A DNA stretch of 64,000 nucleotides from the sequence record OR525698.1; one strand, 5' to 3'. This document shows positions 34,006 to 58,657 of the stretch, piece after piece. This DNA comes from Escherichia phage vB-Eco-KMB43. The notes below the pieces were generated by a model. That model worked only from the letters and a program-made list of their open reading frames with translations. It was not told the origin of the DNA and ran no database searches. Numbering within the stretch: position 1 is the first letter of the stretch; each line of letters begins with the position of its first letter. A program made the position numbers and the translations under genes.

Positions 34006-34158
34006 AATATTTCCTCCATAGAAAGCAATATCATACTACAAGTTAATAACAAATACAAGTATCCGCGTAGCGGAAGCGAGCACAGCGAGCATTAAAAACA
34101 CTTCCAGTAATTGATTAATAAATGTTCGAAACAAATTTTTATTATTTTATAAGATAAG

Positions 34159-34329
34159 TCTTCGTTTTGATCATAATTTAAACATACATGTAAAACTACA
34201 CAAAAGGATATCGCTTCGCGAACTCCTACGGAGTATAACATTTGTGTTACAATATGTAGTGATTAATAATTAACCAAAGATACATTTTCTATGTTCTAAA
34301 GATCTTTCTTCGTTTTGATCATAATTTAA
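34159..34329. repeat. pair of direct repeats (23-bp core TCTTCGTTTTGATCATAATTTAA at 34159-34181 and 34307-34329) in AT-rich non-coding region
   Basis: two identical 23-mers plus shared downstream CATGTAAA(A)CT about 148 bp apart. Confidence 0.6.
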
Positions 34330-34385
34330 TCAAACAGTATTAATATTGTGCACATGTAAACTAAAATTATGTTAATAATAGATAC

Positions 34386-34410
34386 AAAAAAGCCGCCCAG
34401 AAGGACGGCT
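34386..34410 (-). terminator. rho-independent terminator (minus strand)
   Basis: AGCCGCCCAGAAGGACGGCT hairpin with T-run on the minus strand, just downstream of the ORF ending at 34419. Confidence 0.6.
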
Positions 34411-34418
34411 AATGTTAA

Positions 34419-34856
34419 TTATTTGTTGATAACGATCTGATTTCGGCGAATGGTAACATTACTCTTAGAGATGATCAGATCATCCGGCACTACGTTAGTT
34501 TTGTATGGTTGGAATCGAACAAGCATCTGATTGCGTTTAGACCCTTCCTTAATCTTGATTTCCATCTGGATATTGTTGCCTACGTGAGCAACCGCAATTT
34601 CACCTTTATTCTCATAGACCCACTTGCTGGTAACGTCTCCAGCAAAAGCCTTAATAACTTGCAATGCTTCGTCGTATGCGGTAGAGCTGTGAACTTTCAG
34701 AAGGCCAGCCGTAGCAAGACGGGAGCAGGTGATCGCCGGAGATTGCCAAACATCAACATTAATTTGCTCAATCATAGTAACACCGCCCTGATCAACTGCT
34801 TTGAATGCTTCGAACATTGCCTTTTTCATTGCTACGTGGTTTTTACGGAATTTCAT
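34419..34856 (-). CDS. hypothetical protein (145 aa)
   Basis: ORF in the 24.x position; no recognised motifs. Confidence 0.4.
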   Translation of the reverse strand: MKFRKNHVAMKKAMFEAFKAVDQGGVTMIEQINVDVWQSPAITCSRLATAGLLKVHSSTAYDEALQVIKAFAGDVTSKWVYENKGEIAVAHVGNNIQMEIKIKEGSKRNQMLVRFQPYKTNVVPDDLIISKSNVTIRRNQIVINK

Positions 34857-34902: not shown

Positions 34903-35178
34903 TTAGGACATTGCCCGTTTGAATGCGTCCATTATAACAGTGTTATTTGGCTTGTCAACACGTTTTTGAACTTTATTTTTAAATTTTTTGTTGATGTGGT
35001 GTTTACGATAAACAACCTTTTCACGGCTGGCGTAAGCCTCGCGTGCATCTTTTACCATCAACCATTCCTTAGCCGCATCTTGTCCGCTGATCCCGCCAAT
35101 CTTCTTAGCAATATCAACAAAATTAAGACCGTGGTCTTCGCGTAGCATGTAAACCATTAACGCTGTTTTCTTGTCCAT
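34903..35178 (-). CDS. hypothetical basic protein (about 91 aa from ATG 35178; alternative start 35286)
   Basis: ATG overlapping the stop of the upstream ORF (TGATG coupling); basic C-terminus. Confidence 0.35.
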   Translation of the reverse strand: MDKKTALMVYMLREDHGLNFVDIAKKIGGISGQDAAKEWLMVKDAREAYASREKVVYRKHHINKKFKNKVQKRVDKPNNTVIMDAFKRAMS

Positions 35179-35375
35179 CACTTCGCCCCATTGACGATTA
35201 ACAGGATAGTGATCAGTACCGGAAACTGGATCATGACAGTACCAAAAAACCGGATAAACGCATTTTCCGACTTCCACACATGACATGCGACTAGCTGATA
35301 GACCATTGTTGCAACCAAAGCCAGAAAATACATCTCGATTGGTGCTTCTTTGATCAATCGTACAACCTCATTCAT
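35178..35375 (-). CDS. small hydrophobic (membrane) protein, 65 aa
   Basis: strong SD GAGGTGA 5 nt upstream of ATG 35375; two hydrophobic stretches. Confidence 0.4.
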   Translation of the reverse strand: MNEVVRLIKEAPIEMYFLALVATMVYQLVACHVWKSENAFIRFFGTVMIQFPVLITILLIVNGAK

Positions 35376-35569
35376 ACTTCACCTCATACATTCATAAACA
35401 CAACAACGAATAGGACAGTAACAGTTATTAAAGCCATTTTCAACCCCATATTCATAATATTTTCCTCATAGGGTAACGCCCTGTCGATGCGTGCCATTAT
35501 AGGCATCTAAATCGCTCTGTCAAGCACAAAAACAAAAAAGCCACCCCGAAGGATGGCTGATAGATTTCA

Positions 35570-37049: not shown

Positions 37050-37775
37050 TTACTTGAGTGTGTGGAATTGGCTGTGTTTAGTCTCTCGCACCTTGACAGA
37101 CCCATCGCGTTTGATATAATAGATCAGCGACTTGAGGGTGTCGTGTACATACGCGTGCGGGAAACGTTCTGGATACTTCTTCCAATCTGGAGTATTAACG
37201 ATCCAGTCGAAAATCCACCACGGGCAGGAGTAGTAACCACGACCGCCACCGATCAAGCAAATGGTCGGACGGAAGCCAGTAAGATCGCAAAATGAATCAG
37301 TGTCATGTGCTGGGGAACGATGCTCTGCTTCGTTAGAGAAAATGTTGGCTACCGGAGATTCCACTTTAACTTCCGGTGCTTCTTCAACATCTGACTTAAC
37401 TTCTTCGACCACTGGTTCAACTGCCGGAGATTCTTCTTTTGTTTCTTCAATGACGATCTCAGGTTCTTTCATTGCTTCAACCAGAGACGGATCAACTTCG
37501 TCGAATACCACTTTATCATCTGCGGTGTCTGCTGCCAGAATAAGATCGTTAATACTGGTTCCTTCTGCCGGAGTTTCTTCTTCCATTTCGGAAGCCAGTT
37601 TAGTTAATTCTGTTTCTACGAACTCGATCATGTTCTCTAGCGAGAGCGTCTTTTTGACCTTTATATCAAATTGTTTTGCGTAGTCCGCTAATTCTGTTTT
37701 AGCGGCTTTCTGTGATTCTTTGTCGTCGGACGCCGCAATAGCGCGGAGTTCTTCGAAATATTCTTTATCAAACAT
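37050..37775 (-). CDS. inh: Inh-like protein (inhibitor of prohead protease), by position only
   Basis: 241 aa; acidic central region; location adjacent to hoc as in T4. Confidence 0.3.
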   Translation of the reverse strand: MFDKEYFEELRAIAASDDKESQKAAKTELADYAKQFDIKVKKTLSLENMIEFVETELTKLASEMEEETPAEGTSINDLILAADTADDKVVFDEVDPSLVEAMKEPEIVIEETKEESPAVEPVVEEVKSDVEEAPEVKVESPVANIFSNEAEHRSPAHDTDSFCDLTGFRPTICLIGGGRGYYSCPWWIFDWIVNTPDWKKYPERFPHAYVHDTLKSLIYYIKRDGSVKVRETKHSQFHTLK

Positions 37776-51425: not shown

Positions 51426-51495
51426 GTTTGATTCCCCTTTCGTTTCGGTATGTGTGTATTATAGGGGATCACCGATCCCCCTGTCAACAACTTTT
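51426..51495 (-). promoter_or_regulatory. promoter/5'UTR cassette copy 2 (PeSL-like)
   Basis: TTGACA (plus 51482-51487), palindromic spacer GGGGGATCGGTGATCCCC, TATAAT, conserved UTR. Confidence 0.65.
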
Positions 51496-58585: not shown

Positions 58586-58657
58586 AATTGATTCTCCTAG
58601 TTCGTTTCGGTATGTGTGTATTATAGGGGAGTTTAACCTCCCCTGTCAACAACTTTT
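58586..58657 (-). promoter_or_regulatory. promoter/5'UTR cassette copy 12 (PeSL-like)
   Basis: TTGACA (plus 58645-58650), palindromic spacer GGGGAGGTTAAACTCCCC, TATAAT. Confidence 0.6.

Follow-up and report, generated by a model that had tools for sequence, protein, structure and literature searches.

Two small, adjacent open reading frames (ORFs), here called orf23 and orf65, lie on the minus strand of a 64,000-nucleotide (nt) stretch of DNA from Escherichia phage vB-Eco-KMB43 (record OR525698.1), referred to below as the window. The first, orf23 (35455..35384; 23 codons plus stop), runs from an ATG at 35455 to a TGA at 35386..35384 and encodes MNMGLKMALITVTVLFVVVFMNV, a predicted single-pass membrane microprotein. 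Its Shine-Dalgarno (SD) sequence, GAGGA, is located at 35467..35463, 7 nt ahead of the ATG. The second, orf65 (35375..35178; 65 codons plus stop), begins with an ATG at 35375, ends with a stop codon at 35180..35178, and encodes a predicted two-pass helical-hairpin protein of the inner membrane; its SD sequence, GAGGTGA (35385..35379), overlaps the orf23 stop codon. A homolog of gp24.3, a basic DUF2774 protein of 91 amino acids (aa), follows as the third cistron (35178..34903). The gene order along the minus strand is inh, hoc, orf23/orf65, gp24.3, a 145-aa ORF, and a DprA-like gene, with gp24 and uvsW flanking the locus on both sides on the plus strand.

The original prediction had described a 23-codon ORF with a GAGGA ribosome-binding site, a 65-codon ORF with two hydrophobic stretches and the SD sequence GAGGTGA, and a basic protein coupled to the latter through TGATG. 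Indeed, both ORFs are present with the coordinates given, the two hydrophobic stretches are borne out by the sequence and by Kyte-Doolittle maxima, and the coupled protein is basic (pI 10.0, with 21 lysine and arginine residues).

A 771-nt region around orf23/orf65 matches 58 phage records at 90 to 98% identity. All 58 are Krischvirus, identifying the window as a Krischvirus genome; this genus comprises the RB49/phi1/JSE-like T4-type coliphages. The comparisons described below draw on about 40 related loci taken from GenBank Krischvirus records, IMG/VR contigs, and metagenome contigs.

Coding evidence for orf23 and orf65

The junctions between the three genes are tight and conserved. The GAGGTGA of orf65 includes the final two bases of the orf23 stop codon, which lies 8 nt from the orf65 ATG in the window and 8 to 10 nt from it in relatives. 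This placement of the stop codon inside the next SD sequence is kept in every relative, including the distant contig L026 (TGAGGGG). Likewise, the gp24.3 ATG (35178..35176) overlaps the orf65 stop codon as TGATG, and the overlap is kept as TGATG or TAATG, even in L026. Duplex energies between SD and anti-SD are -6.3 kcal/mol for orf23 and -6.9 kcal/mol for orf65, against a median of -5.8 kcal/mol for the 49 long ORFs of the window, and both sites fall within roughly the top 2 to 3% of random positions. The ribosome-binding sites, originally described as strong, are thus present, but their energies are typical of the window's long ORFs and not exceptional. The orf23 SD sequence is retained in five variants of the 5' untranslated region (UTR), as GAGGA, GAAGA with an upstream GAGG, GGAGGA (contig L118), or GAGGG (L026).

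The genome has a GC content of 41%, and the window contains 714 ATG-initiated ORFs of 15 to 45 codons, 20 of which are as hydrophobic as orf23. Four of these 20 also have an SD-like motif, two of them sitting out of frame inside a 352-aa gene. Because hydrophobic mini-ORFs with an SD-like motif arise by chance in the window, the sequence alone would not prove that orf23 is a gene; in our assessment it is the comparative evidence that does.

orf23 is present in all of the approximately 40 loci that carry orf65. Among 10 distinct substitution haplotypes, 13 of the 22 allele differences are synonymous and 9 are non-synonymous, against an expectation of about 22% synonymous (binomial P = 1.6e-4); reading the same interval in each of the other five frames gives 1 to 9 synonymous differences. 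By codon position, 13 differences fall on the third base, 8 on the first, and 1 on the second. Hydrophobicity is kept in seven of the nine replacements (M/V twice, V/I, T/I, F/L, V/L, and M/I), the other two being G4R and T11P. Krischvirus-like loci hardly vary at the C terminus, TV(T/I)VLFVVVFMNV; the exceptions are M21I in L117 and, in the distant L026, F16L and V17L.

Insertions and deletions also respect the frame. Phage FL15 has a 12-nt in-frame deletion that removes K6 to L9, including M7, and yields MNMGLITVTVLFVVVFMNV, and in PTE-Eco09 the frame is restored by two compensating indels, +1 and -1, separated by 7 nt. The 1-kb contig L026 reproduces the whole arrangement, with terminator, consensus promoter, SD sequence, and a 17-codon ORF (MALIPIIVLLLVVFMNV) whose stop codon lies inside the next SD sequence, followed by a 66-aa ORF with a TAATG overlap into DUF2774. 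Over the shared 17-codon core, dN/dS between orf23 and L026 is about 0.1. This conserved core corresponds to residues 7 to 23 (M7 ATG at 35437..35435), to which Krischvirus proper adds six N-terminal codons; among relatives the length varies at the N terminus, giving 17, 19, or 23 codons. We consider it very likely that orf23 is a real gene. No paralog was found in the window, where the one weak orf23-like match is antisense inside the tail-sheath gene.

Most annotations overlook orf23, a gene that comparison between relatives supports well. The RB49, JSE, W115, and most other records examined omit it, only three protein-database entries contain the peptide, and the few records that annotate the gene give it 37 to 42 aa with a wrong start. 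The longest ORF in this frame, of 40 aa, would begin at an ATG at 35506, upstream of the -10 box, and a 7-nt indel in relatives accompanies loss of that ATG. We rejected the 37- to 42-aa models because their start sits inside the promoter or upstream of the -10 box and because relatives break the frame.

orf65 is almost certainly a real gene. Its product matches phrog_16558 over its full length (E = 1.3e-44; residues 1 to 65 on profile positions 1 to 65 of 65), a family that includes RB49ORF167c and EpJSE_00172 and is labelled as a hypothetical or "putative membrane" Krischvirus protein. In each of the 58 Krischvirus records of GenBank, hoc lies on one side of the gene and gp24.3 on the other. 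A tblastn search of 50,697 phage records returned 58 matches, all of them Krischvirus (58/58; 75 to 98.5% identity), a word search of 5.8 billion proteins yielded 11 clusters, all Krischvirus-type, and an exhaustive profile search of 1.84 billion representatives gave four matches. The one useful distant homolog among these four is P0012, a relative of 44% identity; the orf65 homolog of contig L026 is only 44% identical and sits in the same layout. Another match, P0013, is repetitive, looks false, and was set aside. A scan of IMG/VR gave 2 contigs. In a metagenome collection, a degenerate 17-mer hit 87 stretches, but only 2 proved to be true relatives, the others being chance matches. Neither orf65 nor orf23 matched Pfam, NCBIfam, or PADLOC, and PHROGs returned the unknown-function family only. 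In these searches, orf65 is restricted to this clade.

The length of orf65 is kept in relatives except for one 62-aa allele, and pN/pS is 0.41 for residues 1 to 33 and 0.25 for residues 34 to 65. Since both halves are under purifying selection, positive selection of the arms-race kind is unsupported. A lack of conservation in relatives, which the original prediction had named as evidence against these frames, is the opposite of what we find: orf23 and orf65 are both conserved under purifying selection.

Four records (SSG23, PTE-Eco09, FL15, and Delraymugoa) omit orf65 and annotate a 127-aa extended gp24.3 (34903..35286, minus strand) that overlaps its C-terminal half. In TB34, L019, and L117, stop codons interrupt the extension 3 to 4 codons ahead of the gp24.3 ATG, and in some relatives the extension has no start codon; we therefore regard the 127-aa model as an annotation artefact.

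Residues 3 to 25 of orf65 occur in two sharply diverged allelic forms, KEAPIEMYFLALVATMV and EVTPLSVYILVLVSTMV, while the surrounding hoc 3' end, orf23, and C-terminal half of orf65 are nearly identical. This pattern suggests an N-terminal mosaic produced by recombination between lineages. A 78-aa protein, P0011, from a 1.4-kb ENA contig, joins orf65 residues 35 to 65 (the loop and second helix) to an unrelated N terminus and would be either a recombinant allele or an assembly chimera.

Promoter context and accessory distribution

The hoc gene is followed by a terminator stem-loop (35558..35539, minus strand; AGCCATCCTTCGGGGTGGC followed by a T-run) with 8 pairs, 5 of them GC, and the tail TTTTTTG. 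It is unchanged across aligned relatives, and in RB49 the same terminator was placed by TransTerm between hoc and ORF167c (Nolan et al. 2006, Additional file 2). Just beyond it is a perfect sigma-70-type early promoter, TTGACA-16 nt-TATAAT (35523..35496, minus strand; 12/12), with both hexamers unchanged in relatives. The window holds seven perfect promoters of this kind, where shuffled sequences predict 0.09, so the promoter ahead of orf23 is not a chance occurrence. The predicted transcription start of the operon is at about 35489 ± 2. The late motif TATAAATA was not found ahead of orf23/orf65. The 151-nt leader RNA shows no structure, folding worse than 195 of 200 shuffles (z = +1.8), and an Rfam search of the locus gave no match.

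The terminator and promoter together have the architecture of a promoter-early stem-loop (PeSL) element (Arbiol et al. 2010, PMC2839356; Comeau et al. 2014, PMC4122927). In RB49 and phi1, PeSLs consist of a stem-loop terminator and a near-consensus sigma-70 promoter directly upstream of ORFans, hoc is named among the known PeSL-associated genes, and crossovers were mapped between the -10 box and the SD sequence (Arbiol et al. 2010, PMC2839356). At orf23, a stem-loop and a sigma-70-like promoter likewise directly precede an ORFan. The part of the 5' UTR that runs from the -10 box to the SD sequence is hypervariable among relatives, with indels that include one of 7 nt. This clustering of variation, and the presence or absence of a module between the promoter and 24.3, are indirect indications that the element may have the promoter and terminator activity of a PeSL and may form mini-circles when flanking PeSLs recombine.

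Presence and absence of the pair were followed across T4-like phages. In T4, orf23/orf65 are absent, and 100 nt comprising terminator and promoter separate hoc from 24.3. In Mosigvirus and in T4-like phages of Klebsiella, the interval from hoc to the DUF2774 match contains no annotated gene. In a sister lineage (L114-116), the promoter leads straight into DUF2774, and hoc, DUF2774, the 145/151-aa ORF, and gp24 are shared. The two genes strictly co-occur, being either both present or both absent. Because they are missing from T4 and from one sister lineage, orf23/orf65 form an accessory two-gene insertion that, on the genomes compared, is always gained or lost together, a distribution in keeping with the PeSL model (Arbiol et al. 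2010, PMC2839356).

The downstream gene is far more widespread. The gp24.3 homolog, named as such in the RB49 and JSE records, matches Pfam PF11242 (97.1 bits against a cutoff of 29.2; E = 6.5e-28) and phrog_1566, and tblastn with gp24.3/DUF2774 finds 844 phage records, widespread in T4-like phages. In an AlphaFold2 model, its N-terminal approximately 50 residues (predicted local distance difference test [pLDDT] score of about 90) resemble three-helix helix-turn-helix domains, namely sigma region 4, DeoR, and GcrA. The E-values of these fold matches are non-significant, the list of matches is consistent, and a basic tail follows the domain; a sequence search of the PDB with gp24.3 returned nothing significant. 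The model suggests that gp24.3 may be a small early DNA-binding or RNA polymerase-related protein.

Beyond gp24.3, the last gene of the cassette is the 145-aa ORF (34856..34419, minus strand), a member of the function-unassigned family phrog_15652 that is syntenic in all relatives. It is served by a second perfect promoter, TTGACA-16-TATAAT (34958..34931, minus strand), within the 3' end of the gp24.3 coding sequence, in its last 56 nt. The promoter's hexamers encode parts of KRVDKP...TVIMD, residues kept in all gp24.3 homologs, and L114-type relatives retain the promoter as TTGACA...TATGAT. Because the motif is kept even in these relatives, this stretch seems to be under double constraint, as protein and as promoter of the 145-aa ORF. 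The cassette closes with a terminator stem-loop (34410..34391, minus strand; AGCCGTCCTTCTGGGCGGC followed by a T-run) closely like that of hoc; the equivalent site in RB49 was also called by TransTerm (Nolan et al. 2006, Additional file 2).

Between this terminator and the DprA-like gene is a 413-nt spacer (34006..34418, minus strand) in which the JSE and TB34 records have no gene. It holds a direct repeat of about 24 nt, TTAAATTATGATCAAAACGAAGA, with an GTTTACATGT-like motif ahead of each copy, and a small hairpin at 34074..34062; it could contain T4-style early promoters or a small RNA. At this position the metagenome contigs L118-L120 have an extra 271-aa gene with a faint CapR Pfam match. 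Elsewhere in the window, sites at 51458..51487 and 58620..58649 (minus strand) belong to the PeSL subclass described for RB49 and phi1. A further perfect consensus promoter, with an extended -10 TG (37093..37120, plus strand), lies antisense within inh, about 710 nt upstream of uvsW, and would give either an antisense transcript that spans most of inh or a long uvsW leader.

Membrane character, possible functions, and alternatives

Both products have the predicted character of membrane proteins. On the Kyte-Doolittle scale, orf23 has a grand average of hydropathy of 1.89 and a 15-residue maximum of 2.86 at residues 7 to 21, and orf65 has maxima of 1.72 near residues 13 to 33 and of 2.39 at residues 43 to 61. 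The RB49 ortholog of orf65 has TMHMM segments at residues 7 to 29 and 39 to 61 (Nolan et al. 2006, Additional file 2). An AlphaFold2 model of orf65 from an 11-sequence alignment (pLDDT of 78) contains helices at residues 3 to 10, 13 to 33, and 39 to 61, the last two forming a hairpin; Foldseek searches with this model returned only generic helical hairpins (E ≥ 2). We consider it likely that both proteins are membrane inserted. Of the original suggestion that these are small phage membrane peptides that could act as exclusion factors, holin-like proteins, or toxin-like regulators, the part that concerns their nature stands, as conservation of both frames argues that they are very probably translated; the proposed roles fare differently and are weighed below.

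Our best overall explanation, which we hold with moderate confidence, is that orf23 and orf65 are two genuine genes, the first cistrons of an accessory immediate-early operon of Krischvirus, and encode small membrane proteins. Host sigma-70 RNA polymerase would initiate at the perfect-consensus promoter just past the hoc terminator, within the PeSL element. Ribosomes would translate orf23, stop inside the orf65 SD sequence 8 nt before the orf65 ATG, and go on to orf65, whose stop codon overlaps the gp24.3 ATG. Given a shared mRNA, the stop codon within the SD sequence, and the TGATG overlap, the three products would be made together. orf23 would yield a single-span hydrophobic peptide of 17 to 23 residues and orf65 a 65-residue two-helix hairpin, both entering the inner membrane of the host in the first minutes after infection. 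That the two act as a pair, forming a small three-helix membrane unit, we rate at about even chances. Our best guess at their function is that the pair would alter an inner-membrane step important early in infection. The leading candidate would be an Imm-like barrier that keeps out the genomes of phages arriving later, followed by the neutralisation or modulation of a host membrane protein or of a membrane-acting defence.

Other accounts of orf23 place its importance outside the peptide. It could be a translated leader that feeds or tunes initiation at orf65, its peptide functionless and orf65 the only functional membrane protein. Such a device would suit its very short length, its variable N terminus (17, 19, or 23 codons), and a stop codon that lies inside the orf65 SD sequence, 8 to 10 nt before the ATG, in every relative. 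A pure coupling device, however, constrains position and length rather than amino acids, whereas the changes in orf23 are mostly synonymous, its replacements stay hydrophobic, and its C terminus is nearly invariant. orf65, moreover, has a good SD sequence of its own (-6.9 kcal/mol) that is unsequestered by structure (z = +1.8), and we consider the leader account improbable. Less probable still is that orf23 is a chance ORF or a Val-rich attenuator-type leader, conserved only because the nucleotides serve as an mRNA leader, a PeSL recombination site, or some other element at the DNA or RNA level. Chance does produce hydrophobic mini-ORFs with an SD-like motif in the window, most genome annotations leave orf23 out, and its sequence is rich in Val, Ile, Leu, and Thr, as are ilv leaders. 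Against this, the substitutions are frame specific (13/22 synonymous, compared with 1 to 9 in the other five frames), the indels of FL15 and PTE-Eco09 respect the frame, and the non-coding stretch just upstream is hypervariable where orf23 is not. An attenuator would also be expected to form terminator and antiterminator hairpins, and none are found: the next ATG is only 8 nt away and there is no significant folding.

The two remaining roles raised by the original prediction find little in their favor. The Ibs and ShoB toxins of E. coli are similar to the 17- to 23-aa orf23 in length and extreme hydrophobicity, a comparison of general properties rather than of aligned sequences, and early expression would suit host takeover by a depolarising peptide (Ibs-, ShoB-, or TisB-like), whether used for host shut-off or controlled by antisense RNA. 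However, no plus-strand promoter scoring at least 10/12 exists within 35178..35560 (the best plus-strand sites, at 9/12, lie elsewhere), there is no Rfam small RNA match or stable RNA structure at the locus, and profile searches found no homology to a known toxin family. Since orf23 also shares its transcript with two further conserved genes and does not stand apart as a toxin/antitoxin locus, a toxin-like regulator of type I has no support, and we regard it as highly improbable, though marginally less so than a chance ORF. Least probable of all, in our estimation, is a lysis role, in which the pair would act as a holin or pinholin or in the manner of an antiholin. In their small size and their one and two transmembrane (TM) segments, the proteins do broadly resemble class II/III holins and antiholins. 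Such a role is unlikely because the promoter is immediate-early, of sigma-70 consensus, with no late TATAAATA motif found, and because no endolysin adjoins the pair: in JSE, the T-type holin (EpJSE_00256), rI (EpJSE_00088), and endolysin (EpJSE_00106) are encoded elsewhere, 45 to 55 kb away. The charged, usually basic C-terminal tail of holins is also missing, orf65 ending in ...LLIVNGAK and orf23 in ...FMNV, and related phages without the module lyse normally.

Exclusion is, by comparison, the most attractive of the three roles originally suggested, and a plausible one. T4 Imm is reported to bind the tape-measure protein of an incoming phage and thereby prevent translocation of its genome, and HK97 gp15 is cited as similar (bioRxiv 10.64898/2026.03.06.709160). 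A tblastn search detected no homolog of T4 Imm across the window and 121 kb of JSE, a coverage of about 148 of 166 kb of JSE plus the window; because 18 kb of JSE (1-10 kb and 132-140 kb) lie outside the search, the absence of Imm from Krischvirus is provisional. With no detectable Imm homolog, the role may be vacant, making an analogous function plausible. The case for exclusion is circumstantial, consisting of early expression, accessory distribution, and this lack of a detectable homolog, and we hold an exclusion-like function to be a tentative proposal, on balance doubtful. A more specific version seems somewhat less likely again: that the two proteins form a two-component, three-helix complex, the Krischvirus counterpart of T4 Imm, that intercepts incoming tape-measure or channel proteins in exclusion or anti-defence. 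If so, orf23 would be an obligatory subunit and among the smallest functional phage-encoded proteins known, and the two N-terminal allelic forms of orf65 would reflect differences in specificity between phage lineages.

Several observations weigh against reading orf23 and orf65 as a functional membrane pair, or against its Imm-like form. The orf23 N terminus is unstable, with codons 1 to 6 missing in L026 and M7 changed to V in L118, leaving M1, M3, or M7 as candidate initiation codons. In Delraymugoa, an uncompensated -1 indel in an A-run puts M1 to K6 out of frame and leaves the 17-codon core intact; a sequencing error in the homopolymer may account for this deletion. In orf65, the first helix is only marginally hydrophobic (+3.1 kcal/mol for the best 19-residue window on a Hessa-type scale, with approximate scale values), and phages without the module are evidently viable. 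A blastp comparison of orf65 with T4 Imm gave no alignment at E ≤ 100 and no Pfam match was found at E ≤ 1; in the searches made, neither orf23 nor orf65 has sequence or fold similarity to Imm or to any characterised protein. In RB49, TM segments are predicted in at least 14 small ORFs, two segments in 12 of these and one in the others (Nolan et al. 2006, Additional file 2), so the prior for orf23/orf65 in particular being an exclusion factor is low. We found no published translation, localisation, or phenotype data for either ORF and no Krischvirus ribosome profiling or proteomics; literature searches on DUF2774, ORF167c, and Krischvirus transcriptomics likewise returned nothing.

Most likely, then, orf23 and orf65 are ordinary phage accessory genes that encode tiny inner-membrane proteins made very early in infection. 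What is new here is mainly an overlooked, selected microprotein gene of 17 to 23 aa, as orf65 had been annotated before, under the names hypothetical or predicted membrane protein. Microproteins of fewer than 30 residues are systematically missed in phage annotation; at this locus, the few records that call orf23 use a start codon inside the promoter, and several swap orf65 for the 127-aa gp24.3 extension. The comparison of relatives supplies a clean and correctable gene model in a genus of which phage-therapy collections make wide use, and it defines a candidate pair for studying how T4-like phages without a recognisable imm handle superinfection or membrane-acting defences. If functional, the pair would be a tiny, tractable phage membrane microprotein module carried by a mobile promoter-terminator cassette; without a phenotype, it would be one more ORFan of the hyperplastic regions. 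Either outcome would be an expected kind of biology.

Comparison with known systems

orf65 is no different from phrog_16558, RB49ORF167c, and EpJSE_00172, being itself a member of this family, which is without an assigned function. The regulatory context is also familiar. The crossover zone of the RB49 and phi1 PeSLs is the same stretch in which relatives of this locus are hypervariable; the PeSL label covers the regulatory and recombination element and not the proteins encoded behind it. In T4, Mosigvirus, and Klebsiella T4-like phages, gp24.3 (DUF2774) is likewise placed after hoc. In these phages, however, 24.3 directly follows the promoter, and only Krischvirus-type genomes have two mini-genes in between.

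Small bacterial membrane proteins such as KdpF, AcrZ, MgtS, and CydX, and the type I toxins, perturb the membrane or serve larger membrane proteins as accessory subunits or regulators. Small proteins of this kind are the subject of a review (PMC12648545). orf23 is in the same size class (17 to 30 aa) as these proteins and Ibs, ShoB, and TisB, and shares with them a single hydrophobic helix, but has no homology to any of them. Unlike the bacterial proteins, it is phage encoded, is first in a polycistronic early mRNA, and always occurs with orf65.

With T4 Imm (immunity to superinfection; Pfam Imm_superinfect) and HK97 gp15, the pair shares the features of small, early-expressed phage inner-membrane proteins that are dispensable for growth, features that for orf23/orf65 are predicted. 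Imm is a single protein of 83 aa with a hydrophobic helical core, whereas here a one-TM and a two-TM protein are predicted. The loci also differ, T4 imm adjoining genes 42 and 43 and orf23/orf65 lying between hoc and gp24.3.

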